Assembly (NCBI GenBank): GCA_964396095.1
Contig: CAYNCK010000088.1
Coordinates: 1-61,117 of the forward strand
DNA: 61,117 bases
Origin: an uncultured Methanosarcinales archaeon
Lineage (GTDB): Archaea; Nanobdellota; Nanobdellia; Woesearchaeales; GW2011-AR4
Reading direction: 5' to 3'
The notes beneath the pieces were generated by a model. That model did no database searches. It saw only the letters and a program-made list of their open reading frames with translations, and was not told the origin of the DNA. Below are positions 4,039 to 57,218 of the stretch, in pieces. Within the stretch, counting starts at the first letter, position 1, and the number at the start of each line of letters is the position of its first letter. A program made the translations under genes and the position numbers.

Positions 4039-4099
4039 TATCCTTCTTGGTTAGATGCGCCATGCAACATTTATAAGGGATTTAAAAAGGTGAGGCAGC

Positions 4100-24611: not shown

Positions 24612-25625
24612 TCATCCCAAAATCTTCTTCATCTGGTTTGTTTTAATGGCATTCTTTATCTCGATTGCAATCCTTCTTCCTGTTGACATCGGCTTGTTGT
24701 ACTTCAGCCAGGTATATGGCGAGCCATCAATATATGGATTCGTTCCTGCAACAATCCTCGCTGAAATCTCAAATACAAAAATTTCCTCTTCCGGAGTCAG
24801 AATTGTTTCAAGGCAAAAAGGGCCGAACAATCCGGGCGGAGCAAGTTTTTTTGAGGTTTCAACAACAGATTTTCCCATCTGGATTAATCTCGGCAAAAAT
24901 GATTCACGGACGACAACTGGGATGTTTCCTACAATAACATAGCTTGGGTCAATCTTTGGCAAAACAATCTGGTCTCTTGCTGAAATTCTTCCCAAAGAAT
25001 CAACATTGCTTTCGTACCTTATGTCCATTCCCATAATTTCTATTTCATTTGTCAATGAGGAATAAAAGTAATGTATAAATAAAGGAACCCCTATAATATA
25101 CTCCTGTATAACATATTTCCTTAGCTTATATGGCCTGATTTTTTTATTGAAATCTTTTTCATCTTTGGCGAGGAAATATCCTTTTCCCCCCTCTGCGCCC
25201 ATGAACTTGACAATTACGAGCCTGTCTATATCTTTTGGCTTGTCAAGGAGCAATGGAACCTTGAAGCCGGAATTTTTCAGCCACTGCCTTTCCAAGTACC
25301 TGTCGCTTTCCCACTTTAGAATTTTCTTGTTGCCGTAGTAATCTACTTTTAATTTTTCAACTTCCTGAAAGCCCATGTAAGTCACAAAAGAGCCGTGCGG
25401 AATAATGATTGCATTTTTCTTAATCAGTTCATCCTGAATTTTAGGAAAATTCTTGTATGAATCTATGCTTATAATTTCATCTGCTGAATTAAACATCCTG
25501 TATGGCTCTTCAGAGCCTTTCTTGCAGACTGCGATTGTCTTAAAGCCTTCGTCATGCGCTCCCTTGAATATTTGCAGTGCAGAATGAGAACCTATTGTTG
25601 CAATCTTGTATTTTGGCTGCGCCAT
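24612..25625 (-). CDS. purP: PurP-like formate-dependent ATP-grasp ligase, paralogue 2
   Basis: IATIGSHSALQI, IPHGSF, GGKGYF, GPFCLE, FEISARIVAGTN, MSTGRRIA. Confidence 0.88.
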   Translation of the reverse strand: MAQPKYKIATIGSHSALQIFKGAHDEGFKTIAVCKKGSEEPYRMFNSADEIISIDSYKNFPKIQDELIKKNAIIIPHGSFVTYMGFQEVEKLKVDYYGNKKILKWESDRYLERQWLKNSGFKVPLLLDKPKDIDRLVIVKFMGAEGGKGYFLAKDEKDFNKKIRPYKLRKYVIQEYIIGVPLFIHYFYSSLTNEIEIMGMDIRYESNVDSLGRISARDQIVLPKIDPSYVIVGNIPVVVRESFLPRLIQMGKSVVETSKKLAPPGLFGPFCLETILTPEEEIFVFEISARIVAGTNPYIDGSPYTWLKYNKPMSTGRRIAIEIKNAIKTNQMKKILG

Positions 25626-26121: not shown

Positions 26122-28271
<2,150 letters not shown>

Positions 28272-31454: not shown

Positions 31455-32393
31455 TTAACGAAATTGTAATGATTTCATAAACAATAAGTCCATATAAGTA
31501 GGATTTTTTACAGGATTGCCTTGTTTTATATAATCCCTGGCCCAAGTCAATTTATTGTAAATTGCACTATAACCACGTAAATTAGTGTTACTAGACCATT
31601 CCATTGGAATCTCATATTTCCCAGACTTCGCGTATAAATAAGTACCATCTTCTATCACTAACAATCTAAAACCATCAATTTTTATTATTGGACTAATGCC
31701 TGGCAGTGATAAAAATCTTCCACCATCTGCAAGTAAATAATCCATTATGACCTCTATCTTGTCTGGATTATAAGTTAACACAGTAGTATAATCTTTAATT
31801 CCACTGCCTCCATTTCTGGTTTCTTCCATAAGACTGATAGAGCGATGGTGTTTTTTATCATCAATATGAAAATTGAAAAAAAATTCATCATTTATTCCTT
31901 TAAAACGACCGATATAATAATCATTTACCGATGGTAAGGTATCGTCTGGGTCAATTTTAACATTTCTAGCAATTTTTTCAAGCATGGATTCAAAGTCCCC
32001 AATAGAATATTTAGTCTTTCCAAATGATTCAAAGGTAAGCTTGACTTCTTCCAAGATTGAATAATCAGCTTGTTGCGGATTGATTTTATCATGAGGTTCT
32101 TCTTTTTTATCAGATTTTAATTGCACTTTGTTTTCTTGGGCTCTAGAGCTTATAGGTGAAGCGTTCAACATTCTTTCTATAGGGGTAAGGGAGTTAATCG
32201 AGGCTGGATTGTTTGAGCTTGCATTGTAATTATCTTTCGAATCAAAAGGTGGACTTCCTTCCAAATTTTGAGAATGGGATGCTGCACCATAGTGAAGAAT
32301 GCTGCTCAAGTCAATATTCTTACTAGCATACCTAATAGCACTACCACACAGAATTGCTAGTAATCCTAAACTGGCTTTTGTTTTTCTTTGCAC
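31455..32393 (-). CDS. Hypothetical N-terminally membrane-anchored protein (312 aa)
   Basis: MQRKTKASLGLLAILCGSAIRY, then Ser/Asn-rich linker. Confidence 0.65.
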   Translation of the reverse strand: MQRKTKASLGLLAILCGSAIRYASKNIDLSSILHYGAASHSQNLEGSPPFDSKDNYNASSNNPASINSLTPIERMLNASPISSRAQENKVQLKSDKKEEPHDKINPQQADYSILEEVKLTFESFGKTKYSIGDFESMLEKIARNVKIDPDDTLPSVNDYYIGRFKGINDEFFFNFHIDDKKHHRSISLMEETRNGGSGIKDYTTVLTYNPDKIEVIMDYLLADGGRFLSLPGISPIIKIDGFRLLVIEDGTYLYAKSGKYEIPMEWSSNTNLRGYSAIYNKLTWARDYIKQGNPVKNPTYMDLLFMKSLQFR

Positions 32394-32420: not shown

Positions 32421-33494
32421 TTAAATCTTCTCAACAATTAATTTCCCTTTCTCAATCTTCAGTACAACTTCATCCTTTTCCCCGAACTGCGCAATGCCTG
32501 TCACAATCTTTGGCAGTAAAATCCTGCCGCCCCTGAAATCAAGATTTGTTATTATCTGCTGGGCAATCTCGCCGCTCATTCCAAGATCCTCAAAAATCTT
32601 TGTGGTAGCCTCGTCTCTGTCCCTTGCGGAAAATATCTCAGATTTTTCAAACAAATATTTTGCAATTTTGTCTGCTATGTTGATGCTTGTTGCCTTGGTA
32701 ATTCCCTGTAATCCGGGGCTTAAATTTGCTTCAATCACTACGGGCCCTTTTGGGCCTTCAAGAATATCAACAGCGCAAATTTCTGCACCAATTGATTCGG
32801 CGGTATCAACTGCAATTCTTTTTGTGTTCTGGTCAAGCACACACGCTTCTCCCGTTCCCCCCGCATGTATGTTAGCCCGCATCTCCCCCCTGACTGCTTT
32901 TCTTTTCATGGACGCAACAACCCTATCGCCAATGACAAAAGCCCGTATGTCGACTCCTCCTGTTTCAATGTACTCCTGAATCAAAAATGGCTGCTTTAAT
33001 GCAAACAATGCGTCGAGCATTGAAGAAGCTGCTGCGTAGCTTTCTGCAAACATAACTCCCTTTCCCTGCGTTCCATGCGGAAATTTTAGGACAATAGGAT
33101 AATTGACTACATTCAAAACTTTCTTTGCAGCCCTTGCAGATGATGCAAGGTATGTTGTAGGCATCGGAATGTTGAAATGCTGCAATGCAAGTTGCGTAAG
33201 CAATTTATCATGCCCCAGTGTAAAAGTTTCCGGCTTTATCGGCATGTAGGAATTCCGGTATAATGTCCGTGTCACGCTCCTCAGCAAAGGAGCATACCTA
33301 AAAGAGCCTCTTGCATAAATGCAGCTATAGCGCGGCATTGCGTTGCCTTCATAAAGTACATTTAATTTTCCAGCACCAAGGTTGACTTCAACATCTCTCA
33401 AGTCAATGTTGTCAACACTGTCGAAATAGCTCTCCATAGCTTCAATTATCATCATTGAGCTTTTGCTTCCGAGGGACATTACAGCTGCTTTCAT
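32421..33494 (-). CDS. RimK-family ATP-grasp ligase with C-terminal AbrB-like domain
   Basis: DKLLT.L.L....IPMP.T, LKFPHGTQGKGV, IQEYI...GVDIRAFV, RANIHAGG, IEANLSPG; tail DFRGGRILLPK...GEKDEVVLKIEKGKLIVEK. Confidence 0.85.
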   Translation of the reverse strand: MKAAVMSLGSKSSMMIIEAMESYFDSVDNIDLRDVEVNLGAGKLNVLYEGNAMPRYSCIYARGSFRYAPLLRSVTRTLYRNSYMPIKPETFTLGHDKLLTQLALQHFNIPMPTTYLASSARAAKKVLNVVNYPIVLKFPHGTQGKGVMFAESYAAASSMLDALFALKQPFLIQEYIETGGVDIRAFVIGDRVVASMKRKAVRGEMRANIHAGGTGEACVLDQNTKRIAVDTAESIGAEICAVDILEGPKGPVVIEANLSPGLQGITKATSINIADKIAKYLFEKSEIFSARDRDEATTKIFEDLGMSGEIAQQIITNLDFRGGRILLPKIVTGIAQFGEKDEVVLKIEKGKLIVEKI

Positions 33495-33554
33495 TCAGCT
33501 GTTCTGCCAGTTGAGTGCGGAGTCAAGTACGATTTTTGAAGCTCAATCGTACGG
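33495..33554 (-). repeat. Hairpin mini-element copy 3, abutting the rimK-like start codon
   Basis: Minus strand CC-GTACGATT-(10 nt)-AATCGTAC-TTGACTCCGCACTCAAC-TGGCAGAACAGCTGA-ATG aligns to copies 1 and 2. Confidence 0.75.
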
Positions 33555-33614
33555 AAAGTAAACGCACTACCGACTTTTTTTTGTTTTTTCATTTTAGTTA
33601 ATTAGAATTAACCA

Positions 33615-33971
33615 TCATTTTGTTGGATCAATCAAATACCCGTCCTTCAAGATGTTCTGCCCGATTAAAACCCTGAATTTCATATGGGCCCGGTCTGCCA
33701 AGGTGAACTCTGAAGTTATTTTCTTGCCGGCAAGCTCAATAGTCGCTTCTATTATTGGCCTTAATTTCGAGCCGTGGGCAGATTTGATTAGTTTGGATTT
33801 TATAACGGGCCCAAGCCTTAATTCAGCAGCAAGGTTTGTGTCGATAGAGCTTTTTGTTGCGCCTGTATCTATCTTTGCAATCACATTCTTATTGCCGGCT
33901 TGGTGATAAACCCTGACTTTTTCAGCCAAGCCTATAACTACCTTTCCGTCTATGACTTTATAACCCCCCAT
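33615..33971 (-). CDS. RimK-associated retropepsin-like aspartic protease
   Basis: AKIDTGATKSSID, RPII, EFTLADR..MKFRVLIGQN. Confidence 0.85.
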   Translation of the reverse strand: MGGYKVIDGKVVIGLAEKVRVYHQAGNKNVIAKIDTGATKSSIDTNLAAELRLGPVIKSKLIKSAHGSKLRPIIEATIELAGKKITSEFTLADRAHMKFRVLIGQNILKDGYLIDPTK

Positions 33972-34316: not shown

Positions 34317-34706
34317 TCATTTCTCCAGAATAATCTCAGCTTTCTTGACCCCTTCTGTGCCTTTAATTTTCTCAAATAATTTCTTAACCCTTTCAACTCT
34401 TCCTTTCACGACAATCAGCTCCAAACAATTGTGGTGGTCAAGGTAAGTGTGCATCGAAGAAACAATCTGGCAGTGATAGTCATGCTGCAAATTGGAAACA
34501 TTCTTGCCGTAATGCCCGACTCTCTGGTCATATACTATTTTTATGGTGCCAACAATCTCATTTTCATGATGATGTGAAAGCCTGTCCCTTATTATGTCAT
34601 TTATAGCTTCAGACCTGTTGTTATACCCTTTTTCTTTTATGAACTTGTCAAATAGTTTCAGCAGCTTCGGCTCGAATGAAATTCCAGTTCTTATTACTTT
34701 GTCCAT
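34317..34706 (-). CDS. nikR: Nickel-responsive regulator
   Basis: RHH N-terminus (RTGISF...GYNNRSEAI.D.IRD); ACT-like domain with QHDY...SMHTYLDHHNCLE. Confidence 0.9.
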   Translation of the reverse strand: MDKVIRTGISFEPKLLKLFDKFIKEKGYNNRSEAINDIIRDRLSHHHENEIVGTIKIVYDQRVGHYGKNVSNLQHDYHCQIVSSMHTYLDHHNCLELIVVKGRVERVKKLFEKIKGTEGVKKAEIILEK

Positions 34707-34796
34707 TTTATGATTTTTTTATTTTTGAATAATGTTTATAATGATTCGAATTGGAAACAACGAAAAATATTTAAACATATAGTCTTTATTAAACTT

Positions 34797-35348
34797 ATGC
34801 GAAAATTACCTGCTTTAACATTAGGACTTTCTCTTTTGGTAGGGGGCGAAGGTATCGCTCAGGGATTGGAAGCAAAAGTCAATAAACCTAAATTAACGAC
34901 AAAACGTGCAATTGCGGAAGATTTCATCTCCCACCCACTTTCATTCGCACATGACGCAAAATATAATGTAACTTATAATAGCATAGTGGATATTTTAGAA
35001 CAATCTAAAAATATAGACTTATCCAAGAATTATCCAAGCGAATCACATGAATATAAATTACAAAGGGAACTTGAGTCAAATGCCTGGTCCATGATGTGGT
35101 TGACAGAGCATTACATCGAAAAGTTTGGCAAAATTAGCCAAAAAGATGTCGTGGCGCTGTCTTTAAATATATTACAAAGAGTAAAAGAAAAATTTGGACT
35201 GCACCCTTTTCGCGATGATGTTTATAGGACTCAATTGAAAATACTTGGCTTGCCTTTGAAGGAAGGTACTATGCAAGGGCCATATGAAATCCCTCAGCGA
35301 TTTCAGGCGCTCATGCCTTATGCTATCCCCCCACCCGTTCTAAAGTGA
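34797..35348 (+). CDS. Hypothetical secreted protein
   Basis: MRKLPALTLGLSLLVGGEGIA signal-like N-terminus at ATG 34797. Confidence 0.6.
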   Translation: MRKLPALTLGLSLLVGGEGIAQGLEAKVNKPKLTTKRAIAEDFISHPLSFAHDAKYNVTYNSIVDILEQSKNIDLSKNYPSESHEYKLQRELESNAWSMMWLTEHYIEKFGKISQKDVVALSLNILQRVKEKFGLHPFRDDVYRTQLKILGLPLKEGTMQGPYEIPQRFQALMPYAIPPPVLK

Positions 35349-35415
35349 GTTTATTTATAGTAACACGCTTGTAAAAAACGTAATATTTAAATATTTTGCT
35401 TATAAACTTTTTTAA

Positions 35416-36081
35416 ATGCTTCAAATATTTGCGTTTATGCTTCTTGCGCTTGCATTAGGTTTCAAACATAGCTACGACTCTGACCACCTGATTGCAGTTT
35501 CAAACATTCTAAGGAAGGTTGATTCAGTAAAATCCTCGATAAAAATCGGCTTCAGCTGGGCAGTAGGGCACATGCTTACAGCAACAATCATAACAATAGC
35601 TCTTTTCATTTTTAAACAATCTTTTTTGAACAATGTTCTTCCAAGTTTTGAAAAGATTGTTGGGATAATGCTAATGGTGCTAGGAATCATAAGCTTGAGG
35701 GATTTTTTCAGTTTACACTCCCATAAACATTCGCACGGAGATATAATCCATTCACATCCCCACATTCACATTAATAAAACTCATGAGAAGGCACACATGC
35801 ATATTCATATGTTTGGAATAGGAATTGTGCACGGGCTTGCAAGCAATGACGAGCTTTTGCTTCTTTTCGCTGCATCACTTGCCGTCACATCTATTTGGGG
35901 CATGATTGCAGCTCTTGGTTTTTTTAGCTTTGGAGTCGTTCTTGGCATGGCAGTCTTTGCAATTATTTTTTCATATCCTCTGATTAGCATGCACAGCGAA
36001 AAAATATACAAATTTATATCATTTGGCACAGGCTCTATGGGAATAATATACGGAACAATGATGCTATTCGCAATCGCATAA
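35416..36081 (+). CDS. Nickel/cobalt permease (NiCoT/UreH-like)
   Basis: LGFKHSYDSDH, WAVGH, His-rich loop HSHKHSHGDIIHSHPHIH, GIVHGLAS. Confidence 0.8.
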   Translation: MLQIFAFMLLALALGFKHSYDSDHLIAVSNILRKVDSVKSSIKIGFSWAVGHMLTATIITIALFIFKQSFLNNVLPSFEKIVGIMLMVLGIISLRDFFSLHSHKHSHGDIIHSHPHIHINKTHEKAHMHIHMFGIGIVHGLASNDELLLLFAASLAVTSIWGMIAALGFFSFGVVLGMAVFAIIFSYPLISMHSEKIYKFISFGTGSMGIIYGTMMLFAIA

Positions 36082-36083
36082 AA

Positions 36084-36899
36084 ATGGAAAAGGAATTAGT
36101 TCAAAAATACGAAAATATGAAAAATGAAATAAAAAAGTTAGATTCAGCGATAATTGCATTTTCCGGTGGAGTTGACAGCGCATTGGTTTTAAAAATTGCT
36201 TATGACGTTTTAAAGGAAAAATTGATTGCAGTCACTGCGGACAGCCCTTCATTGCCGAGAATGGAGCTAGAAGATACAAAAAGAATTGCAAAATCTATTG
36301 GAGCTAAACATCTTATTATAAGCACAGAGGAAACAGAAAATGAAAATTACATTAAAAACCCAAATAACAGATGCTACTACTGCAAAACTGAGCTGTATTC
36401 AAAGTTAAAAAAAATATCAAGCGAACTTACAATAAAAAATATCCTTAACGGCACAAATTTTGATGATATAGGCGAATACAGGCCCGGGTTGAAGGCAGCT
36501 GGTGAATTCAAGATAATAAGCCCGTTAAAAGATGCGAAGTTCACAAAGAATGATGTGAGGGAGCTGGCAAAATACCTTGGCTTGCAGATTTGGGACAAGC
36601 CATCAAGCCCCTGCCTTTCATCAAGAATACCTTACGGAAACGAGGTCACAATTAAAAAGCTGGCCATGATTGAGAACGCAGAAAATTTCCTAAAGGATTT
36701 TGGAATAATAGAATTAAGGGTAAGGCACTTTGGGCAAAAAGCTAGGATTGAAGTAAGGGAAGATGATAGGCATGTTGTCAATAAAAATTTCGATTTAATA
36801 CAAAAAATGTTTAACAAAATTGGCTTTGAAGAAATAGAAATTTCAATTTTCAAGAGCGGAAACCTGAACGTGGTGCTGAATGTACAACCAGAAAATTAA
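36084..36899 (+). CDS. larE: Nickel-pincer cofactor sulfur transferase
   Basis: AFSGGVDS PP-loop, RCYYCK, GTNFDD...YRPG, WDKPSSPCLSSRIPYG. Confidence 0.92.
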   Translation: MEKELVQKYENMKNEIKKLDSAIIAFSGGVDSALVLKIAYDVLKEKLIAVTADSPSLPRMELEDTKRIAKSIGAKHLIISTEETENENYIKNPNNRCYYCKTELYSKLKKISSELTIKNILNGTNFDDIGEYRPGLKAAGEFKIISPLKDAKFTKNDVRELAKYLGLQIWDKPSSPCLSSRIPYGNEVTIKKLAMIENAENFLKDFGIIELRVRHFGQKARIEVREDDRHVVNKNFDLIQKMFNKIGFEEIEISIFKSGNLNVVLNVQPEN

Positions 36900-37626
36900 G
36901 GCAGTTATGGAAAAAGTAAAGAAAGGGAAACTCAAGGTAGATGACGCACTAAAAAAATTGAAATTCATGCCATTTGAAGACCTGGGATTTGCGAAAATTG
37001 ACCACCACCGCGCTTTGAGGAAAGGATTTCCAGAAGTTGTTTTCTGCCAGAACAAGACGAAGGAACAGGCTGTCAGCATAATGAAAAGAATGGCAAGTGT
37101 CAATTCCACTATACTTGGAACAAGGGCAAGCGAAGAAATGTTCAATGAAGTTAAAAAGCAAATTAAGAACGCACAATACAATAGAATATCTAAAACAATT
37201 ATAATAAAAAATCAAAAAAATAAAATAACCAAAAAGGGAAAAATACTTGTCTTAAGCGCAGGAACTTCTGATATGCCGGTTGCCGAGGAAGCCGCTGTTG
37301 TTGCTGATGCAATGGGGAATAAAGTTGAAAAGATTTACGATGTTGGCGTTGCAGGATTGCATAGATTATTGGGCAACAAGGAAAAAATATCTGATGCGAA
37401 TGTTCTTGTTATAGTTGCAGGAATGGATGGGGCATTGCCAAGCGTTGTCTCAGGATTGTTTGACAAGCCCATCATTGCAGTGCCCACATCTGTCGGCTAC
37501 GGAGCTTCATTTAAGGGAATTGCACCATTATTGACAATGCTTAACTCATGCTCGCCAGGGGTTGTCGTCGTCAATATCGACAACGGATTTGGCGCAGGGT
37601 ACTTTGCAAGCCTGATAAACAAATAA
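36880..37626 (+). CDS. larB: Nickel-pincer cofactor carboxylase/hydrolase
   Basis: AKIDHHR..RKGFPEVV, AGTSD.PVAEEA, DVGVAGLHRL, AGMDGALPSV, VPTSVGYGA, VVNIDNGFGA. Confidence 0.94.
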   Translation: MYNQKIKAVMEKVKKGKLKVDDALKKLKFMPFEDLGFAKIDHHRALRKGFPEVVFCQNKTKEQAVSIMKRMASVNSTILGTRASEEMFNEVKKQIKNAQYNRISKTIIIKNQKNKITKKGKILVLSAGTSDMPVAEEAAVVADAMGNKVEKIYDVGVAGLHRLLGNKEKISDANVLVIVAGMDGALPSVVSGLFDKPIIAVPTSVGYGASFKGIAPLLTMLNSCSPGVVVVNIDNGFGAGYFASLINK

Positions 37627-37627
37627 A

Positions 37628-38788
37628 ATGAAAACTCTATACTTCGATTGCTTTTCAGGAATAAGCGGAGATATGGTAGTTGGGGCTTTGATAGATTTGG
37701 GATTGGATGTTAATTATTTAAAAAATGAATTGAAAAAACTTAATCTAAAATATTATAATATTTCTTCAAGAAAAATTGTCAAGAGTGGAATTTCAGCAAC
37801 AAAATTCTATGTTATTGAAAATAACAAGCACCACCATGACGAAAGAAATCTGAACGAAATAAATAAAATCATTGGCAACTCAAAATTTGACAATGAAATA
37901 AAAAACACAATTAAAAATATTTTCCTAAAAATCGCTTCGGCAGAGGCAAAAATCCACAACAAGCCCATTGGCAAAATACATTTTCATGAGGTTGGCGCCA
38001 TTGACACAATTGTTGATATTGCGGCAGCTGTTATTGGAATTAAAAAATTAAATATTGATAAAATATGCTGCTCAAAACTCAATGTAGGGACTGGGTTTGT
38101 TGAATTCTCCCACGGAAAATTTCCTGTTCCTGCGCCTGCAACTGCTGAAATACTAAAAAATATTCCCATTTACAGCAATAATATCGAAGCAGAGCTGGTA
38201 ACTCCAACAGGCGCTGCAATAATCTCAACACTCGCAAAAAATTTTGGAGAAATGCCTATGATGAAAGTGGAAAAAATCGGTTATGGCGCTGGAACAAAAG
38301 ATTTGGAGCAGCCGAATGTTTTGAGGGTTTTTATGGGAGAATCTAAAAATGACAAAAACGAACCGATAAACATAATTGAAACAAATATTGACAACATGAA
38401 TCCTGAGATTTATCCTTACGTTATAGACAAATTAATGGAAAACGGGGCATTGGATGCTTATTTGACAAACATAATAATGAAAAAAGGAAGGCCAGCTGTA
38501 AAATTAAGCGTTTTGTGTGAAATTAAAGACACCGACAGGCTGTCAACTATAATTTTTGACGAAACGACCACTCTCGGTATCAGGATTTTTCCCGCAGACA
38601 GGAAAACTCTTGAAAGGGATATAAAAATTGTAAAAACAAAATATGGAAATGTAAGAGTGAAGATTTCAAGACTAAACGGTAAAATTAAAAATATAACTCA
38701 CGAATTCGAGGACTGTATTAAAATTGCGAAACAGAAGAATATCCCTCTAAAGAATGCCTATGGAGGGTTGAAAAACAAAGAATTATGA
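37628..38788 (+). CDS. larC: Nickel insertase
   Basis: FDCFSGISGDM, AEAKIH...IHFHEVGAIDT, HG.FPVPAPAT, ELVTPTGAAI, ETNID, MKKGRP, ETTTLGIR. Confidence 0.94.
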   Translation: MKTLYFDCFSGISGDMVVGALIDLGLDVNYLKNELKKLNLKYYNISSRKIVKSGISATKFYVIENNKHHHDERNLNEINKIIGNSKFDNEIKNTIKNIFLKIASAEAKIHNKPIGKIHFHEVGAIDTIVDIAAAVIGIKKLNIDKICCSKLNVGTGFVEFSHGKFPVPAPATAEILKNIPIYSNNIEAELVTPTGAAIISTLAKNFGEMPMMKVEKIGYGAGTKDLEQPNVLRVFMGESKNDKNEPINIIETNIDNMNPEIYPYVIDKLMENGALDAYLTNIIMKKGRPAVKLSVLCEIKDTDRLSTIIFDETTTLGIRIFPADRKTLERDIKIVKTKYGNVRVKISRLNGKIKNITHEFEDCIKIAKQKNIPLKNAYGGLKNKEL

Positions 38789-39508
38789 CTTTCTGGCTGC
38801 TTGTTCAAGCCTTGATTGAGGACTTGGGGGATTCTGGGTGACTCCTTGCATGCCGCTTAGTGTTCTCAGAAGCAGGTGCATATAACCTGTTGTTAATAAG
38901 CCATTCTCCAAATGCTGTTTTGCTTCTTCCCTTAGAGGTTCATCTGTTGGGTGGCGCATCAGTTCATAAGCGCCGGTAATATTCACTAAGCCAAGTGAAC
39001 GATAAGGTGAAGCGTGACCATTTGAGCTGTTAATAACTACAAATTCTCTCCTAACTGTATCTTTTAAATCACTTAATCCTGGATGACCAACAGCTCGTAA
39101 TTCACTGGCTACTTCTTCCTTATCGAGTGATTCAAGTTTTATACCTCCAGAAATATCCCTTTTCATATAACCCACCAACGCATCAAGTTGCATCAATTCC
39201 CAGAAATTTGCAAGAGCAATTTCACTTTGTGCAAGGTCTTTTTCCAGCAAACTGGCAAAGGAAGTAGAAAGATGCAAGTTGGCCAAGGAATGCACTCTTG
39301 TTCCATTGCCGGAATGGTTCCTCACTATTTGTTCATAATTCTGTCTTAATCTTTGTATGCCGCCATTGGTTTGAAACGCGTAAATGAATCTTGAAACCGC
39401 ACCATCCATAAGGAGGCTATTTGGTGAATTTGGCACTGGAATGCCTAAACTTTCAATTGCCTGTTTTTGGTAAGGAAGAGTTGATTGTGCCTGTTCCATT
39501 CGAATCAC
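38783..39508 (-). CDS. Hypothetical protein (241 aa)
   Basis: ATG ORF convergent with larC; no motif recognised. Confidence 0.6.
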   Translation of the reverse strand: MIRMEQAQSTLPYQKQAIESLGIPVPNSPNSLLMDGAVSRFIYAFQTNGGIQRLRQNYEQIVRNHSGNGTRVHSLANLHLSTSFASLLEKDLAQSEIALANFWELMQLDALVGYMKRDISGGIKLESLDKEEVASELRAVGHPGLSDLKDTVRREFVVINSSNGHASPYRSLGLVNITGAYELMRHPTDEPLREEAKQHLENGLLTTGYMHLLLRTLSGMQGVTQNPPSPQSRLEQAARKS

Positions 39509-39593: not shown

Positions 39594-40238
39594 ATGACAA
39601 ATTTAACCCATGAAGTGTGGAATTATCTTGATTCTGAGCCTAGCATTAGGAGGGAGCTTAACAGGGGCATTGTCAACACCATGGCTTTGGCAAAGCATAT
39701 TGTAAAAGCAAAAAACCTAAATAGCTCTGTTGATGCAGTCATCAGCTCAATAAGAAGATATGTAGCTGAACAAAGGCATGATCTCAAATTTCATAATGTT
39801 GAAAACATAATAAAATCATCAAGAATATCAACAAAAAACAAGATTGCTTTAATAGCAATGAAGCGAGATCCTATCATAATAGAGCTGTTGCCAAAGGTGT
39901 TTCCGCTGATAGAGCTGAACCGGGGAGATGTCATGAGGCTGTCCGAAGGAAAAGAGTCAATCAAGCTGCTTGTTGATGAAAAAAACGTCCAGAAGATAGT
40001 AAGCATTTTCCCTGAAAACAAGCTGATAGGGGTAACAAAAAACCTAAGCGAGCTTAGCATTCTTTTCGGACCAGGGGCGCCTGAGACTGTCGGAGTCCTT
40101 GCAACAATAATCAATGAGATTGCCGCAAACAACATCAACATTGTAGAGTCAATCGGCTGCATTCCGGAATACATGATTTTTGTTGACAACAAAGATATAT
40201 TGAAAGCGCATGAGATAATGATTAAGCTGTGCGGGTAA
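39594..40238 (+). CDS. Helical N-domain + ACT-domain protein (amino-acid-sensing regulator-like), paralogue 1
   Basis: GIVNTMALAKHI..SVDAVISSIRRY; C-terminal ACT (ETVGVLATIINEIAANNINIVE). Confidence 0.7.
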   Translation: MTNLTHEVWNYLDSEPSIRRELNRGIVNTMALAKHIVKAKNLNSSVDAVISSIRRYVAEQRHDLKFHNVENIIKSSRISTKNKIALIAMKRDPIIIELLPKVFPLIELNRGDVMRLSEGKESIKLLVDEKNVQKIVSIFPENKLIGVTKNLSELSILFGPGAPETVGVLATIINEIAANNINIVESIGCIPEYMIFVDNKDILKAHEIMIKLCG

Positions 40239-40344: not shown

Positions 40345-41973
40345 ATGATTGATATGCCTGTTGATCTTTTTAGATACGAAAGATTAAGCACTAGACGAAT
40401 GCAGATTTTAAAAAAAGAAGTATTTAGCAGGCTTGATCCACAATACAAGACTCATGATCCTTGGATGTTTGATTCTTACGGAAAAGTTTCACAAATGCTT
40501 TCAGGTATTCTCTCTTTAGAATCTAGTGGTGATTGTATTTATGATACTATGGCTGGGATTGAATTATTAATCCATAGGTTATTTGGCCAATCTATGCAAA
40601 CAAAAAGAGATCCTTTTATTGATGAATCTTTAGTTGCACAATACCTTTTGAATAGAAATGCGGAGGGTATTGTTGTGCTCAAAATAGGCGAAGATAAACT
40701 TCCGGCTATTCGTGGGTTAGATGCTGCTGTAAGGGAATTTGATGAGGTTGTTAATGCCCTAAATCTTGATATAATTTTGGGATGTGGGCGAATCTATCCA
40801 GTTATATCAAATCCGCATGACAATTTTTATTTATTAGGTTTAGAGATGAGAGGCATTGTTTTGCAGAGAATAAACTCTCAACCAGAATTCAGAGAAAAAA
40901 TGAAGTTGCTTCACCGATTTCAAAATGCATTGCCATTTCGCACAGTTTATGGGGACCCATATTTGGATGTACTATCAGAATTAGTTCCAAACGGAGAGGA
41001 ATTTCGACCAGATGCAATACATGATTTTATGAAAATATTTAGAAATGAGAGCCAGTCGGTGGCTAAAGAATTAGGATTCATGCAACACTCTTTACAAAAT
41101 GCCTTTAATTTTGACGGACTGCAAATTTCATATGGAAATCCGCGAGATAACCTTAGTGATTCTGTCCCTTCCTGTGTCAATGGGCTTATAGGAATAATTA
41201 GGGAAGCATCTATAGTCTACGAAGCAGATCCGAATATTGAAATAATCGGAATAGTCCCCTACTTATGCCCTTCAGATTTAATTCCAACAGCACAAAAAAG
41301 ATTGGACCAAATTGTAAAAGCGATTACTATAAAAGTTCGCGACAGAGAAGCAAACAATGAGACAAAGCTAATCGTTGACGGTGTGATTGCGGATGATAAG
41401 TTAGAACGTATGCTCGGGGTTGATTGGCGACCTTATATGGCTATAGGAATTTTAAAATATGCTCAAGACAAGGGAATAGCAAGAGTAATTATTAATGCAG
41501 AAAATAGCGACAGTCATGAAAGTGTCAATTCATTTAAGTATTTTATTGCAACCGAAGTTTTGAATTTACAAGAAGGAACGGATTTTTCCTACAAAATTGA
41601 GAGGAGGACTGGCAATCCTATTTTTAAATTAGGTAGTATTCATATAAGAAATCAAATTGATAATTTTCCCTATACCCACCTTTTAGATAAAGATCCAATG
41701 CCAGAAGCTGAAGTAAAAAGATTAGCAAGGAGTGGATTATATCAAGGCGAAGCTTATCTTGACGCTTGGCATGAATGGATAGTATATGTAATCCGTCACA
41801 GGGATAAACTGGGTCTAGAATTTAAGACAAGATTCCCTTATGTAGAACAAAGAAATCCTACCATGAATCCGGTATGGAATCTGGGGCGCGGTCCCGTAGT
41901 TGGAATGGAATTGGATGTACCATCAGTATTGCCAAGATTACAAAGAAGATATTTACCTAATGTGGCGGAATAA
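40345..41973 (+). CDS. Hypothetical protein (542 aa), C-terminal half weakly LOG/SLOG-like
   Basis: QISYG...GLIGIIREA...IEIIGIVP resembles LOG LVYGG..GLMG.VA..VIGV.P; weak. Confidence 0.55.
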   Translation: MIDMPVDLFRYERLSTRRMQILKKEVFSRLDPQYKTHDPWMFDSYGKVSQMLSGILSLESSGDCIYDTMAGIELLIHRLFGQSMQTKRDPFIDESLVAQYLLNRNAEGIVVLKIGEDKLPAIRGLDAAVREFDEVVNALNLDIILGCGRIYPVISNPHDNFYLLGLEMRGIVLQRINSQPEFREKMKLLHRFQNALPFRTVYGDPYLDVLSELVPNGEEFRPDAIHDFMKIFRNESQSVAKELGFMQHSLQNAFNFDGLQISYGNPRDNLSDSVPSCVNGLIGIIREASIVYEADPNIEIIGIVPYLCPSDLIPTAQKRLDQIVKAITIKVRDREANNETKLIVDGVIADDKLERMLGVDWRPYMAIGILKYAQDKGIARVIINAENSDSHESVNSFKYFIATEVLNLQEGTDFSYKIERRTGNPIFKLGSIHIRNQIDNFPYTHLLDKDPMPEAEVKRLARSGLYQGEAYLDAWHEWIVYVIRHRDKLGLEFKTRFPYVEQRNPTMNPVWNLGRGPVVGMELDVPSVLPRLQRRYLPNVAE

Positions 41974-42217
41974 ATCTTTTACATAATATTTATAATTAAA
42001 GATTAATTCTAAATAATTATGCATGTACTGGTTTTTAGATCTTCCTAGCTTTTATTTTTTCAAACCCTTCAAACAATTTCTTAACATTTCCTTTTCCAAG
42101 CGCCAATATATAAGTTGCAAGCTTCTGACTCCTTTCCTTGTTCAAAATAAAACTTATAATGACTATTTAGTAGTTACTTTAGAAAGATTTATAAATAAAA
42201 TCCCATTAATCAAAATT

Positions 42218-42568
42218 ATGCCTACAGATGCAAATTTAAATTATCCTGCATTGTCTCTTGTGATAAGTCCTTATGAATATAAATCCACTGATAAAATACA
42301 GGGAGATTTAGAAAAAGTTATGCGATTATTAAGAAGTTCAGAACAGTTATTATATGAGGAAATCTCAAAAGACAAAGTTGAATCTGATTTAGCTGTTATG
42401 GTGAATAATCTTTGGGCATTACAAAGGAATTCAAGATACAATGGCGGCTTTCTTTTAACCGATGAGGGTTTGGAATATAGAAAAACATATATGGGAAGGC
42501 ATGGAATTGACATAATTTTCATGGGTGCTGATGGAAGTGTTGTTAAAATTGGCCTCCCAGATGAATAA
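42218..42568 (+). CDS. Hypothetical protein (116 aa)
   Basis: ATG 42218 after TATA-like TTTATAAATA; upstream ORF extension is AT-rich noise. Confidence 0.5.
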   Translation: MPTDANLNYPALSLVISPYEYKSTDKIQGDLEKVMRLLRSSEQLLYEEISKDKVESDLAVMVNNLWALQRNSRYNGGFLLTDEGLEYRKTYMGRHGIDIIFMGADGSVVKIGLPDE

Positions 42569-42577
42569 TTTAGCCAA

Positions 42578-44269
42578 TCAAACCCCTTCAAACAGTTTCG
42601 CAACTTTTTCTTTTCCAAGCGCTAGTATAAAAGGCGCAAGCTTTGGCCCTCTTTCTTTATTTAGTAAAACTTTGTAAGCTGCCTTGAACAAATCATTTGG
42701 CTCAATTTTTAATTCATCCTTGGCAATCCTGTAAAATTCGTTGAACAAAGTTTTCTCATCCCATTTTTCTTTCCTTAATTTTTCAGCAAGCAGATGGAGC
42801 GCTTTCTTCTGATGCTGGTTCAGCTCAATATTTTCAGGAATCTTGTGCTGGAATATGAATTTATACTGCTCATCGGCAAATTCTTTGACCCATCTCTTTG
42901 CGAATGCAAGCCTTTCCCCAACATAAACAATTTCTTCTTTTACAGCGTCTTCAGCAAGCTGGCCGGTTTCCCTCAGGGAATTCATAATCAGTTTTTCATC
43001 ATCAAAAATCTGCACTAAGATTGAAGCCTGTGAAAGGCTGACCTGAGGTGGAATTCTTTTAGGGATTTTTCCGACATGGCTTAATTCATAAATTCTTCTT
43101 TGCCTTGAATTTTCTTTTTCTCCAAGGTCATCTTTTCCAAAATAAACCCTTTCAGCCTGGTCGTATCTTTCATAAAGCAAAATCAAATCATTTGTGTAAG
43201 GGTCAAAATCAATTGCGGCATTTGGCCTTGTCCTTATGAGCATGAACCTCAGCATCTTTGCAGGCGCATAATTTACAGAATCTGCAAATCCAAGCCCCTG
43301 TCCTTTGGAAGTTGACATTTTCTTGCCGCCAACATTAAAAAATTCATATCCCGGGCCTGTTTCATAGCCGTTTGAAGGATAAGGCGGTGGGTAGTCAAAA
43401 ACATCAACTGCTATTCTGCATGCTGCAGTGCGTGATCCTCCTCTTGTGAAATGGTCTTTCCCAGCTGTTTCAACTATAACGCTATTTGTCGGCCATTTTG
43501 CAGCCCATTCGACTTTCCATGGAAATTTTCCATTGCCATCATAGGGGAAAATCCATCCTTTATGGCCGCACCCTTTTGCCCATTTCACAACATCGTTTCT
43601 GCATTCAAAAAATATTTTTTCATTTTTGCCGTCCCATTCAGTCGCAAGGGTTGTGGAAATTTTTTTGCAATGCGGGCAAAGGATATTGAAAGGAAGCTTG
43701 CTTGCCGCAGCGACATCATCACCGTACAAATCCCTGTAAATTTTTTGAATTCTGTCTGCGTAATCCAATGCAATTTTTATTGTCCTGTTGAAAGAGCCTT
43801 TTTCATATTCATGGCCTGTGCTTTCAAGGTGCGCTTCAATCCCAAAATCAGGAAATAATTCCGTGCATTGCGAAAAATAATAATCCCCAAAGCTTTTGTA
43901 GCCTTTTACAGGGCTTGGAATATACCTAAAGGGAACTCCGATGTATTTTTCGTTTTCTTTTTCAGTTAATTCTTTAGAAGGCTTGTCCAATGGATCCATG
44001 TCATCGCTGCTCAGGATGAATTTTGCTTTTACTCCTTTGTCGCGAAGGGCTTTCACAATTGCATCATGTATTACCCATCCCCTGCCTGAGCCTATATGTA
44101 TTGTTCCTGAAGGGGTTTTCTCGTCCATGACAATATAGCCGTGCTTTTTGACAAGGCTTTTCAGCAGCTCATTTCCCTCAACCCTTTTGATTGCCTCATC
44201 AGCAACCTGGTCTGCCCAAAATGAATCTTCGAAACTTTTACCGATAGGGCTTTTTTTATCCATAAACAC
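42578..44269 (-). CDS. lysK: Lysyl-tRNA synthetase class I
   Basis: WAD, TPSG.IHIGS, SDDMDPL, KFPWKVEWAAKW, GKDH, KMSTSKG, RGPKLAPFI. Confidence 0.95.
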   Translation of the reverse strand: MFMDKKSPIGKSFEDSFWADQVADEAIKRVEGNELLKSLVKKHGYIVMDEKTPSGTIHIGSGRGWVIHDAIVKALRDKGVKAKFILSSDDMDPLDKPSKELTEKENEKYIGVPFRYIPSPVKGYKSFGDYYFSQCTELFPDFGIEAHLESTGHEYEKGSFNRTIKIALDYADRIQKIYRDLYGDDVAAASKLPFNILCPHCKKISTTLATEWDGKNEKIFFECRNDVVKWAKGCGHKGWIFPYDGNGKFPWKVEWAAKWPTNSVIVETAGKDHFTRGGSRTAACRIAVDVFDYPPPYPSNGYETGPGYEFFNVGGKKMSTSKGQGLGFADSVNYAPAKMLRFMLIRTRPNAAIDFDPYTNDLILLYERYDQAERVYFGKDDLGEKENSRQRRIYELSHVGKIPKRIPPQVSLSQASILVQIFDDEKLIMNSLRETGQLAEDAVKEEIVYVGERLAFAKRWVKEFADEQYKFIFQHKIPENIELNQHQKKALHLLAEKLRKEKWDEKTLFNEFYRIAKDELKIEPNDLFKAAYKVLLNKERGPKLAPFILALGKEKVAKLFEGV

Positions 44270-44314: not shown

Positions 44315-45814
44315 TTATCTCAATTCTGCTTTTGTAAACGGAAATAATATGACTTCCTTGATTGATTTTTGGTCTGTCAGAATCATTGTAAGCCTGTCAA
44401 TTCCGATTCCAAGTCCTCCTGTGGGGGGCATGCCGTATTCTAAAGCCCTTAGGAAATTTTCATCCAGCCTCAGATGCGGATTATTTTGGCCTTCTCTTCT
44501 GATTTGCTCTTCAAAAAGCTTTCTCTGTAGAATTGGATCGTTCAGTTCTGTGTAAGCATTTCCAATTTCCATTCCGGCAATGTAAGGCTCAAATCTTTCT
44601 GCGAGTCCGGGTTTTTCCCTGTGCGGCTTGCATAACGGGGTTGACTCAATTGGGTGGTCTGTGATAAATACTGGACCATCCAAATGCGGTTCGACATAAG
44701 TTCCAAATAATCCAAGAACAATTTCGCCTTTAGACATATCCCTATAATCACCAATTTTTTCTTCTGATCTGGCAGCAAGATGAGTTTTTAATTCCAGCTG
44801 GTTCATCTTCTCAACATCTGTTCCGGTATATTGTTTTACAGCATCATACATTGTTAATCTTTGCCAGGGCGTCCTCAATTCAATTTCTTTCCCTTGGTAA
44901 TTTATTTTGGTTTTTCCAGTAATAATTATGGCAATTGCGGATATCATTTCTTCTGTCAGTTCCATAACTTTATGGTAGTCGCAATTTGACATGTAAGCTT
45001 CCATCATCGTGAATTCAGGATTGTGGGTGCTGTCAATCCCTTCATTCCTGAAATTCTTGCCAATAGTATAAACTCCCTGAAATCCGCCTACAATCAGTTT
45101 TTTAAGGTAAAGTTCAGGAGAAATTGAAAGGAAATGTTCCTGGTTTAGGGAATTAACATGTGTTATAAATGGAGCCGCTGATGCACCGCCGTAAATAGGC
45201 TGAAGAGTTGGAATTTCGACTTCCATATATCCTTTGCCATCCAAAAATTTTCTCATTTGAGAAATTATTTTTGACCTTTTCATGAAAATTTCAGCAACTT
45301 CGGGGTTTGCAATCAAGTCAAGGAATCTTTGTGAATATCTTATTTCTGGATCAACTAATCCGTGGTGCTTATCGGGCAGCGGCCTTAGTGATTTTGAAAG
45401 CATCGCGAAATCGCGGACATTCATTGAAAACTCGCCTGCTCTTGTATTGAAAGTTGTTCCTTCCGCACCCATAAAATCTCCAATATCAAAAAAATCCTTA
45501 AGAAGAGAATACACATCTTCTCCTAATTGCCTTTGGTTCAAATAAAGTTGTATGGTTTGCCCCCCTTCCCGTAAATCAAGAAATGTAGTTTTTCCATGCC
45601 CCCTCCATGCAACTATCCTTCCGGCAATCTTTGCTTCCAGTCCAATTTGGCTTTTACCAATCAATTCCGGAATTCTGTCTTTAGCATCGTAAAAATGCGG
45701 ATACGGGTCTATGCCCATTCGTCTCAATTCTTCAAGTTTTCGCAGTCTTACTGGGTCAATTCCTGCGTTTGAATCCGTATTTTGCACTCTGTTCTCGAGA
45801 ACTTCGTCTGACAT
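44315..45814 (-). CDS. lysS: Lysyl-tRNA synthetase class II
   Basis: OB fold (AGRI..RGHGK..FLDL), YSQRFLDL, GGASAAPF, SPELYLK, FRNEGID.THNPEFT, GNAYTELNDP, MPPTGGLGIGIDRL. Confidence 0.96.
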   Translation of the reverse strand: MSDEVLENRVQNTDSNAGIDPVRLRKLEELRRMGIDPYPHFYDAKDRIPELIGKSQIGLEAKIAGRIVAWRGHGKTTFLDLREGGQTIQLYLNQRQLGEDVYSLLKDFFDIGDFMGAEGTTFNTRAGEFSMNVRDFAMLSKSLRPLPDKHHGLVDPEIRYSQRFLDLIANPEVAEIFMKRSKIISQMRKFLDGKGYMEVEIPTLQPIYGGASAAPFITHVNSLNQEHFLSISPELYLKKLIVGGFQGVYTIGKNFRNEGIDSTHNPEFTMMEAYMSNCDYHKVMELTEEMISAIAIIITGKTKINYQGKEIELRTPWQRLTMYDAVKQYTGTDVEKMNQLELKTHLAARSEEKIGDYRDMSKGEIVLGLFGTYVEPHLDGPVFITDHPIESTPLCKPHREKPGLAERFEPYIAGMEIGNAYTELNDPILQRKLFEEQIRREGQNNPHLRLDENFLRALEYGMPPTGGLGIGIDRLTMILTDQKSIKEVILFPFTKAELR

Positions 45815-56561: not shown

Positions 56562-57218
56562 ATGGTAACCATAAGCCATCTTGTAAAAAAAATAGTCAAA
56601 GGCCAGCCCTTTGTGGAGGAAGCATTAGGCAGCGGAATCATAAGCACAGCAAACCTAGCAGAGCAGATGCTGCCAAAAATAGAGCAGGAGCTTGGCAAGA
56701 AAGTCAAGCATGCGGCAATTGTCATGGCTTTGAGGAGATTTTCCGATGAGGTTTCAGGGCACAGAGTCAGGCCAAAAAAATTTGATTATTCCGGGGAAAT
56801 TTTGATGAAGACAAATATATGTGATTTCACGATTGTAAAATCCCAAAGCCTTCTTGCGAAATTGAAGACAATCTACAATCTGGTGAATTTTGAGAGGGGG
56901 GACACATTGAACGTAATTTTGGGCAACAATGAAGTCAGCATTATCATAAATGAAAAATATTCGCAAAAGCTTGTGCAATTCCTATTAGGAGAAAAAATAT
57001 CCAACAAAGAGCACGGGCTTGTTGCACTGACTATAATCTTTGCATCAGATGATTTCCTGCACACGCCCGGCATAATATTCAATGCAGTCAGGAAGCTAGC
57101 ATGGGACAATGTAAACATATACGAGATTGTCTCGACAATGACTGAATTAACCTTTATACTGAATAAAAAAGATTCAATGAAAGCTTATGAGGCATTGCAG
57201 GAGATGGTTGACAAATAA
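56562..57218 (+). CDS. Helical N-domain + ACT-domain protein, paralogue 2, divergent from the dap operon
   Basis: GIISTANLAEQM..AAIVMALRRF; ACT (HTPGIIFNAVRKLAWDNVNIYEIVST); similar to 39594-40238. Confidence 0.72.
   Translation: MVTISHLVKKIVKGQPFVEEALGSGIISTANLAEQMLPKIEQELGKKVKHAAIVMALRRFSDEVSGHRVRPKKFDYSGEILMKTNICDFTIVKSQSLLAKLKTIYNLVNFERGDTLNVILGNNEVSIIINEKYSQKLVQFLLGEKISNKEHGLVALTIIFASDDFLHTPGIIFNAVRKLAWDNVNIYEIVSTMTELTFILNKKDSMKAYEALQEMVDK

Follow-up and report, generated by a model that had tools for sequence, protein, structure and literature searches.

The chief lead to new nickel enzymes comes from genes for nickel-pincer nucleotide (NPN) biosynthesis that lack a LarA partner; two client folds came to light in this manner in 2025–2026. 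The 61,117-nt stretch of DNA analysed here (hereafter the window) codes for the biosynthetic enzymes LarE, LarB and LarC, a NikR-family regulator and a candidate nickel permease, and raises the question of which enzyme receives the cofactor and whether it is one of the flanking orphan genes, as the initial annotation had proposed. We consider it probable that the locus forms one self-contained operon, in which a Woesearchaeota-type archaeon encodes both nickel uptake and synthesis of the nickel-pincer cofactor, apparently under the control of the adjacent NikR, and that the client is encoded off the contig and is not one of these orphans.

Gene content and arrangement of the locus

The sequences closest to the LarC of the window (71–77% identity) come from Candidatus Woesearchaeota MAGs, and the window also encodes several archaeal markers, namely prefoldin, PTH2, PurP and class I LysRS. 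Judged by these sequences, the host is a Woesearchaeota-like DPANN archaeon of the small, symbiotic type, in line with its earlier reading as an archaeon. The regulator gene nikR (34317..34706, reverse strand) is divergent from a run of forward-strand genes comprising the permease gene (35416..36081), larE (36084..36899), larB (36880..37626) and larC (37628..38788). These are tightly packed: a 2-nt gap separates the permease gene from larE, larE and larB overlap by 20 nt, and larB and larC are 1 nt apart; the 3′ ends of larC and the convergent gene orphB overlap by 6 nt. Profile matches and ORF spacing thus agree with the initial annotation, which had described, at these positions, a complete NPN biosynthesis set (LarB, a three-Cys LarE and a fused LarC) with NikR and a nickel-type permease in abutting or overlapping genes.

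The order rimK-retropepsin-nikR, divergent from permease-larE-larB-larC, which in turn converges on lysS, is found again in 12–16 related loci. The core of this arrangement, with nikR divergent from permease-larE-larB-larC, is seen in 12 genome loci (L001–L006, L009, L010, L015, L082, L084 and L086), and further metagenome loci of related archaea, four of them long, share the gene order; the permease and lar genes of L008 and L011 are present without nikR within the sequence available. Since the gene order recurs in related archaeal loci, the clustering is not a product of chance. The distance from nikR to the permease gene is about 95 bp in the related loci, from which the gene orphA, inserted at this point in the window, is absent.

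LarE, LarB and LarC, as well as NikR, can be assigned to their families by scores over the curated cutoffs and residue-level agreement with solved structures. LarE, a predicted PP-loop ATP-dependent sulfur insertase, scores 309.3 bits against TIGR00268 (cutoff 150) and displays the PP-loop AFSGGVDS. Its C97YYC100 aligns with the CYNC (within NRCYNCK) of the [4Fe-4S] LarE of M. maripaludis (8CNZ), and the Cys of its PCLSSR motif aligns with that of TCMATR in 8CNZ, one residue after Cys176 of L. plantarum LarE; alignment with both proteins thereby bears out the CxxC and later Cys that had been noticed by eye. A one-residue shift of the third Cys has been described for T. maritima LarE, together with the definition of the CxxC…C motif (PMC9283937). 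By this motif LarE would belong to the [4Fe-4S] subtype and is predicted to bind a cluster. LarB, the probable C5-carboxylase/hydrolase converting NaAD to P2CMN, scores 302.9 bits against NF033503 (cutoff 175) and just 26 bits against the PurE model; its match to L. plantarum LarB (7MJ0; 232 bits) spans residues 9–247, with AGTSDxPVAEEA and LNSC conserved. LarC is a fusion of LarC1 and LarC2, predicted to act as the CTP-dependent nickel insertase (cyclometallase): it matches PF01969 with 508 bits over residues 4–377, TIGR00299 (LarC1) with 222 bits, NF052512 (LarC2) with 154 bits and the full-length LarC of M. thermoacetica (12BI) with 305 bits, and it contains a short His run, NNKHHHDE.

The remaining gene of this run encodes a His-rich protein that resembles six-TM secondary permeases of the NiCoT-related or UreH-like kind. 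The HX4DH signature (KHSYDSDH, residues 17–24) lies in TM1 and is joined by a GH motif, a His-rich loop (HSHKHSHGDIIHSHPHIHINKTHEKAHMHIH) and an HGLA motif, all of which are kept in 15 orthologues that fall into two subtypes. Matches to curated family models are weak, and none reaches its full-length threshold: 30.9 bits against TIGR00802 (cutoff 333), limited to the N-terminal 78 residues, 25.8 bits against NicT (cutoff 450) and 24.2 bits against DsbD_2 (cutoff 24.9). Based on the motifs, we propose that this permease is a Ni2+ importer.

A conserved operator-like block and its candidate regulator

The product of nikR combines an N-terminal ribbon-helix-helix with a C-terminal NikR_C domain (PF08753, 85.9 bits), scores 132.8 bits against NF003381 (cutoff 105) and has P. 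horikoshii NikR (2BJ1, E 1.5e-30) as its best PDB match, placing it in the nickel-responsive regulator family. The high-affinity site of E. coli NikR, which we take to consist of H76′, H87, H89 and C95, is altered in this protein: a Tyr replaces the third His (SSMHTYLDHHNC), at the position of H91 in P. horikoshii and H89 in E. coli, both in the window and in 13 aligned orthologues (MHTYLDHH[NT]C). The canonical square-planar His-His-His-Cys site is hence absent, the other three ligands being kept, with extra His and Cys residues nearby. As one canonical ligand His is a Tyr in all 14 sequences, the metal response of this NikR is an assumption of our reading.

Conserved across the clade, along with the gene arrangement, is a near-invariant 34-nt block (35360–35393) placed 30 nt before the permease ATG. 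It comprises a putative NikR operator, GTAACAC-N13-GTAATAT (35360..35386, forward strand), and a TTTA[TA]A[TA]A element (TTTAAATA; 35386..35393, forward strand), which by archaeal promoter geometry is probably a TATA box. The latter is centred about 26 nt 5′ of the permease ATG, and 21–23 nt separate it from this ATG both in the window and in 13 relatives; therefore, the transcript is predicted to be leaderless or near-leaderless. Within the block 25 of the 34 positions are invariant, and the surrounding intergenic sequence has diverged. The operator recurs, near-invariant and at the same position, in 14/14 Woesearchaeal loci, as a single site per locus; it is the sole such site in the window, and none was found in 1.6 Mb of other, unrelated loci. 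All the sequencing runs found were DNA metagenomes, with no RNA runs among them.

The GTAACAC half-site and the 13-nt spacer are those of the predicted NikR box GTGTTAC-N13/14-GTAACAC (PMC545781). Because the box is conserved and its first half-site is equal to this published half-site, we infer that NikR controls a leaderless uptake and biosynthesis operon through it. However, several features would fit a rival reading, under which NikR and the box are unrelated: the box would then be a strong BRE/TATA with the site of another factor, and NikR would regulate otherwise or sense another metal. The half-sites are direct (GTAACAC…GTAAYAT), whereas in characterised and predicted NikR boxes they are inverted; the second shares sequence with the BRE of the permease promoter, and its conservation is inseparable from that of the BRE/TATA; a canonical ligand His is replaced in this clade; and the nikR of the window lies 650 bp from the box. 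Against this stands the exactness of the match in both half-site and spacing, as well as the distribution of the box: it lies upstream of the permease gene in 13 loci, adjoining the nikR TATA in most, whereas in L008, where no nikR is seen in the available sequence upstream of the permease gene, the promoter part is kept and the GTAACAC half-site is missing. On balance, we regard the rival reading as improbable.

Under NikR control, then, the genes would make up a compact set for nickel import and assembly of the nickel-pincer cofactor, with a nickel sensor as its apparent switch. Nickel-bound NikR would sit on GTAACAC-N13-GTAATAT, and since a half-site overlaps the BRE/TATA of the proposed leaderless permease-larE-larB-larC transcript, the operon would be off at nickel sufficiency; activation, instead of repression at high nickel, is also a possible regulatory logic. 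When nickel is scarce, the operon would be transcribed and the His-rich permease would bring in Ni2+. LarB would then carboxylate and hydrolyse NaAD to P2CMN, the three-Cys LarE with its [4Fe-4S] cluster would make P2TMN catalytically, and LarC would insert nickel using CTP. The finished cofactor would pass to a client encoded outside the 61-kb contig, either a LarA homologue or a recently found non-LarA user. The relatives’ nikR would share the operator with the permease promoter, and the insertion of orphA would have parted the two in the window.

The client enzyme

A Pfam scan of about 70 window ORFs of at least 79 aa recovered no LarA_N/DUF2088 domain, and a tblastn search with L. plantarum LarA (E <= 10) gave no match in the 61 kb, so that the earlier observation that larA is missing from this stretch stands. 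The same search across 160 loci returned nothing except a chance 32-aa match in L155, and tblastn detected no LarA at up to 10 kb from larC, either in the window or in 16 related Woesearchaeal loci. Likewise, neither the window nor the sampled neighbors in the relatives contain an AKR (PF00248) or OCD (PF02423) domain.

The flanking orphans fare poorly as candidates. orphA (34797..35348, forward strand) is a strain-specific ORFan between nikR and the operator; being upstream of the conserved operator/promoter, it lies outside the lar transcription unit. It has a signal-peptide-like N-terminus (MRKLPALTLGLSLLVGGEGIAQG) and a GC3 of 0.34, matches no Pfam or NCBIfam model, finds only itself among 5.8 billion proteins and is absent from all the related loci. 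orphB (38783..39508, reverse strand), a near-ORFan also outside the module, has no family or PDB match and two homologues in all, P0002 (59%) and one in L010 (37%); it is missing from 15 of the 16 related loci. The AF2 models of both are low-confidence and all-helical (pLDDT 48.8 and 38.5, respectively). A 542-aa protein encoded nearby (40345–41973) belongs to a family of 50 representatives among 1.84e9 proteins, of which three homologues sit in contexts without lar genes. None of the three proteins has a Pfam or PDB match, and all have the low GC3 typical of the window’s other ORFans. What speaks for one of them being the NPN-using enzyme is their physical proximity to the lar genes, the recurrence of orphB beside larC in L010 and the membership of the 542-aa protein in a real though tiny family. 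Yet, synteny is wanting, and the structure predictions that had been suggested for the orphans lend them no support, being at odds with the α/β folds of known clients. We therefore hold a client role for any of the three to be highly improbable, and the orphans beside the operon to be strain-specific insertions that are unlikely clients.

Hence, the client is better sought elsewhere in the genome. As the initial annotation had stated, larBCE genes are known to occur in genomes that have no larA, about 15% of those surveyed as against about 9% with LarA and the pathway (PMC11796402), which gives a prior of about 60% that a larBCE-bearing genome has no larA. Its further statement, that NPN is known from the LarA family, is out of date: two users of unrelated folds, the AKR-type NphT and an ornithine cyclodeaminase that depends on NPAD, have since been found by neighborhood mining (PMC13524815). 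An ordinary LarA-family 2-hydroxyacid racemase/epimerase, served by a routine unlinked cofactor-supply operon, is a substantial possibility, if one short of even: by the above counts roughly 4 of every 10 genomes with the pathway also encode LarA, a LarA homologue is present in 29.5% of archaeal species in COG (PMC11770544), and the visible 61 kb come from a genome probably near 1 Mb. Were this so, the earlier inference of an unknown enzyme would be wrong. However, the surroundings of larC in the window and its relatives are devoid of LarA, and no paper linking Woesearchaeota or DPANN with LarA was found in the accessible literature. To a non-LarA client we accord close to an even chance; it could be an NphT-like AKR carrying the His/Lys motif, an ornithine cyclodeaminase of the NPAD type or a member of an undescribed family. 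The larA-less genomes and the two recent folds favor it, as does the fact that the clade has kept a nickel supply that is dedicated to the pathway and apparently regulated; the absence of AKR and OCD domains from the sampled neighborhoods counts against it, and no positive pointer to any particular family emerged.

As it stands, the locus looks as expected of an operon for biosynthesis and uptake, and the specific candidates put forward earlier fail; with larBCE lacking larA and non-LarA users already described in 2025–2026, it is a further case. Nevertheless, the search becomes narrower in a small-genome DPANN archaeon whose supply line is dedicated and apparently regulated by nickel: if the genome has no LarA, the client must be among roughly a thousand genes, and the conserved putative operator is a concrete handle for finding those that are co-regulated. 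It is rather unlikely, though worth entertaining, that the Woesearchaeal clade lacks LarA as well as AKR-type and OCD-type clients and that its nickel-regulated NPN pathway serves an unrecognised family encoded away from the operon. If true, NikR-box searches and Woesearchaeal presence/absence profiling could uncover a nickel-pincer enzyme with a third or fourth fold, with few candidates left by the small genome.

Comparison with known nickel and nickel-pincer systems

The larABCDE/larR(MN)QO system of L. plantarum resembles the present locus in that orthologues of LarB, LarE and LarC build the nickel-pincer nucleotide and that genes for a nickel transporter and a regulator lie next to the biosynthetic ones. 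It differs in having larA, in gene order (larE-larB-larC here) and in LarC, which is one fused ORF here. Its LarE is of the sacrificial single-Cys type as opposed to the CxxC…C cluster type, its transporter is LarMNQO in place of a 6-TM secondary permease, and its regulator is LarR, a Crp/FNR-type protein, in place of NikR. A plasmid copy (L081) has the order larA-larB-larC-larE. Closer to the LarE of the window are those of T. maritima and M. maripaludis (8CNZ), which share the SGGxDS PP-loop and the CxxC…C triad, with the third Cys displaced by one residue relative to L. plantarum Cys176; the match to 8CNZ shows moderate identity (120 bits), and cluster binding is here predicted from the motif.

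NiCoT (HoxN/NixA) and UreH-like permeases have, like the permease described here, HX4DH in the first TM helix, a GH motif after it and a His-rich loop. The NiCoT permeases have eight TM helices, whereas this protein, of about 220 aa, has six hydrophobic segments as counted by eye.

The adjacency of a NikR gene to a nickel importer parallels the E. coli nikABCDE and delta-proteobacterial nikMNQO systems, and the GTAACAC half-site with its 13-nt spacer recalls the NikR box of the latter (PMC545781). Unlike these uptake operons, the present unit has direct half-sites placed inside an archaeal BRE/TATA, includes cofactor biosynthesis genes and has a NikR with Tyr for the third His. Finally, the larBCE clusters that led to NphT and the NPAD ornithine cyclodeaminase likewise combine complete biosynthesis genes with the absence of a neighboring LarA; they differ in that a candidate oxidoreductase lies beside their lar genes, whereas no such neighbor is conserved in the window and its 16 relatives.

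Gene content of the nikR-lar module

We based the gene calls on an ORF map covering 32-42 kb together with Pfam and NCBIfam scans, which recover every gene named in the initial annotation. The nikR gene on the minus strand (34317-34706; NCBIfam NF003381, 132.8 bits, cutoff 105) is divergent from plus-strand genes coding for a 221-aa membrane permease (35416-36081), LarE (36084-36899; TIGR00268, 309 bits), LarB (36880-37626; NF033503, 303 bits) and a fused LarC (37628-38788; PF01969, 508 bits). As that annotation had claimed, the lar genes overlap or abut: a 2-nt gap separates the permease gene from larE, larE and larB overlap by 20 nt, and a 1-nt gap precedes larC. Between nikR and the permease gene, from 34797 on the plus strand, lies a gene (here orphA) for a 183-aa protein with a signal-peptide-like start, for which neither scan returned a family.

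The LarE displays an SGGVDS PP-loop and, as first noticed, a CxxC followed by a later cysteine: C97xxC100 lines up with the corresponding CxxC in 8CNZ, the [4Fe-4S] LarE from M. maripaludis, and the third cysteine, in this comparison with solved structures, falls one residue past L. plantarum Cys176. The same one-residue shift is seen in T. maritima LarE, and the three-Cys form is the majority LarE type (PMC9283937). LarB is alignable to 7MJ0 over residues 9 to 247 and LarC, over its full length, to the M. thermoacetica cryo-EM structure. An assignment of this LarB as the PurE of the window's purine genes is ruled out by the scores (303 bits for the LarB model, 26 for PurE); the window has no purE.

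The NikR shows the domain and the score of its family, with one canonical nickel ligand replaced (His to Tyr) in the window protein and 13 orthologues: a tyrosine occupies the position of P. horikoshii H91 and E. coli H89 within residues about 84-98 (SSMHTYLDHH[NT]C). An additional DYHC motif stands upstream of that segment in the window and in 13 related Woesearchaeal loci. These features suggest that the metal site has been remodelled clade-wide.

The permease is the weakest gene call of the module: the NiCoT model matches only its first 78 residues, and DsbD_2 falls just under threshold. When 15 orthologues are aligned, the first helix shows an invariant H-x4-D-H; the alignment also displays a GH motif, an extended His-rich loop and an HGLA motif. 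As compared in loci L001, L002, L004, L005, L008, L015 and L086, relatives differ in the permease subtype encoded at this point of the operon: one is that of the window (58-77% identical), the other is about 32% identical; the HX4DH signature and the His-rich loop are common to both.

Gene order and a candidate operator in related loci

The closest LarC proteins (65-77% identity) come from Candidatus Woesearchaeota MAGs and related metagenome contigs, and the next tier (44-53%) is bacterial. In 12 genome loci and 4 long metagenome loci, rimK, a retropepsin-like gene and nikR follow one another, divergent from permease-larE-larB-larC, which in turn converge on a class I lysS; in loci cut by contig ends, and in L008 and L009, part of this order is visible. 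The other neighbours sampled in the Woesearchaeal loci are unrelated housekeeping genes or ORFans. Against this shared order the window carries its own insertions, namely orphA between nikR and the permease gene and, between larC and lysS, a second orphan (orphB, 38783-39508, minus strand, convergent to larC), an ACT-domain gene, a 542-aa gene and a 181-aa gene; of the related loci compared, L010 alone also has orphB and the ACT gene.

Several further features of these neighborhoods deserve mention. The genes for the RimK-type ATP-grasp ligase and the retropepsin-like PF05618 protein (32421-33971 in the window) are, in most relatives, co-directional with nikR and downstream of it (compared across L001-L006, L015, L082, L084 and L086). 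Since they begin only about 40 nt past nikR in some of these (e.g., L001 and L084), they may form one transcript with nikR under a common operator; in the window they are set apart from nikR by a 79-aa ORF and a 345-nt gap. The class I lysyl-tRNA synthetase gene directly adjoins one for a class II Asp/Lys/Asn-type synthetase (42578-44269 and 44315-45814), and in relatives the class I enzyme encoded at this site is either closely similar (75-78%) or distantly related (35-39%). In L011, whose LarC is 67% identical, the lar operon holds two additional tightly packed genes (1777-3063 and 3838-4413): a 428-aa protein between larE and larB, with no Pfam match and no homologue in any locus compared, and a SAM-methyltransferase between larB and larC. 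Their position inside the operon makes both of them candidate users or modifiers of the cofactor in that organism.

On the bacterial side, Pyrinomonadaceae loci have larC alone, and Zixibacteria and Ignavibacteria loci have larE-larB-larC with unrelated neighbours; no common client was found among these LarC loci. The closest non-archaeal LarC, LarB and LarE are those of Zixibacteria and Ignavibacteria (L012-L014, L016 and L075; 48-61% for LarB and LarC), in the same order as in the window and lacking nikR and the permease gene, which hints at an inter-domain transfer of the larE-larB-larC block.

In relatives nikR and the permease gene stand about 95 bp apart, and a 34-nt block in this spacer is almost invariant while the remainder has diverged: (TTTC)GTAACAC-N13-GTAATAT-TTA[TA]A[TA]A. 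Each locus has exactly one copy (35360-35393 in the window), and none occurs in 1.6 Mb of unrelated loci. The predicted NikR box of delta-proteobacteria is GTGTTAC-N13/14-GTAACAC (PMC545781), and the window's GTAACAC half-site and spacing are those predicted there. The half-sites are direct, not inverted, and the second is inseparable from promoter conservation: the T/A-rich element that follows it has its centre about 26 nt upstream of the permease ATG, consistent with an archaeal TATA box and with a leaderless transcript. Towards nikR, a TTTAAA element directly adjoins the first half-site, at an appropriate spacing from the nikR start. Hence, we infer from this arrangement one putative operator that serves a pair of divergent promoters, each half-site overlying a BRE, a geometry that would favour repression by NikR. 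The link between box and NikR is supported by L008 (about 5780-5865), a locus with no nikR found in the DNA examined upstream of the permease gene, where the promoter element is kept (CGTAATATTTTTATATA) and GTAACAC is absent; GTGTTAT stands in its place, at a different spacing. As orphA is inserted between nikR and the box, it lies outside the lar unit, and autoregulation of the window's nikR has probably been lost. A search for RNA data on the locus returned DNA metagenomes throughout, both among the sequencing runs found to contain it and among others listed.

Flanking orphans and the rest of the window

The initial annotation had proposed the flanking orphans as candidate enzymes using the nickel-pincer (NPN) cofactor. 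Among 5.8 billion proteins orphA retrieves only itself and orphB a single homologue (59% identity, on a 1.1-kb contig), with one more in L010 (37%). The 542-aa protein (40345-41973) comes from a very small, uncharacterised family, for which a set of 1.84 billion proteins gave 50 representatives; the family has no Pfam domain, and three homologues of the protein lie in genomic contexts without lar genes. A conserved C-terminal region of this family (about residues 230-535) recurs at the end of proteins that are much longer, and ten members have no Pfam domain. A PDB sequence search with orphB and the 542-aa protein (E <= 1) gave nothing. Structure prediction with AlphaFold2 did yield models of orphA and orphB, both all-helical, but their mean pLDDT (48.8 and 38.5) does not warrant a fold search. 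The orphans have a GC3 of 0.25-0.34, as do other ORFans of the window, whereas conserved genes mostly lie at 0.35-0.46; the low-GC3 ORFans are found at 12086-13336, 31455-32393, 34797-35348, 38783-39508, 40345-41973 and 42023-42568. The window's ORFans also have fewer Lys, Ile and Asn than most conserved genes and stand apart as a class in their composition. The scarcity of homologues and the PDB, fold and GC3 results, added to the absence of synteny, argue that the orphans are strain-specific insertions, such as these genomes commonly carry, rather than enzymes that use the cofactor.

The window otherwise codes for purine synthesis (prs, purD, purF, two purP, purA, guaA), an aspartate-family and lysine pathway, two aminoacyl-tRNA synthetases, a P-type ATPase, an IS66 transposase, prefoldin, PTH2 and many ORFans. 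The purine set, unusually full for a DPANN-type archaeon, includes two adjacent PurP (DUF1246/DUF1297) paralogues (23049-24176 and 24612-25625) beside genes at 785-1759, 10507-11817, 14649-16340, 21406-22953 and 26134-27369. Two paralogues of about 215 aa are akin to the regulatory (ACT) region of aspartate kinase: one (39594-40238) is inserted beside larC, the other (56562-57218) accompanies aspartate-family biosynthesis genes, as in relatives. The IS66-family transposase gene (18142-19470) is evidence of mobile DNA in the contig.

The client of the cofactor

Given the observed gene identities, motifs, packing, synteny and operator-block conservation, the module most likely works as follows. 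At low nickel the operon would be transcribed and the permease would import Ni2+; LarB would convert NaAD to P2CMN, the cluster-type LarE would make P2TMN catalytically, and LarC would insert nickel with CTP; nickel-bound NikR would then shut off the lar unit. Of the initial interpretation, NPN biosynthesis with nickel uptake and NikR holds, and the role given to the orphans falls away.

The report that no larA lies in these 61 kb is borne out: a Pfam scan of about 70 window ORFs detects no LarA_N/DUF2088, and tblastn with the annotated LarA of an L. plantarum plasmid (L081), a single query of limited reach for distant homologues, finds no match in the window at E <= 10. With the same reach, that query gives nothing meaningful on 160 loci and no match within 10 kb in the Woesearchaeal loci. 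Two nickel-pincer enzymes other than LarA, described in 2025-2026, feature an aldo-keto reductase and an ornithine cyclodeaminase domain (PMC13524815); neither domain is detected in the same ORFs. In the accessible literature we found no paper linking Woesearchaeota or DPANN with LarA or NPN.

The cofactor user is most likely encoded elsewhere, outside the window. In surveyed genomes about 9% have LarA with the pathway and about 15% the pathway alone (PMC11796402), and a LarA homologue is present in 29.5% of archaeal species in COG (PMC11770544). From these figures we consider a LarA encoded elsewhere plausible, at rather less than an even chance, and a non-LarA enzyme elsewhere to approach an even chance, with about half of that share going to a family yet to be described. 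That one of the flanking orphans is the client appears very improbable.

The locus, which joins lar biosynthesis genes to nickel uptake and NikR, is of a known kind, to which we add the clade-wide synteny and the conserved candidate operator; it would gain greater significance only if a complete genome lacked every known client family. As in the L. plantarum lar system, which the module would resemble in its working, a nickel transporter accompanies the lar genes. Unlike that system, the window has the order larE-larB-larC, as in the closest bacterial loci (Zixibacteria, Ignavibacteria), a fused larC, a LarE of the three-Cys type, a secondary permease as importer and NikR as regulator.
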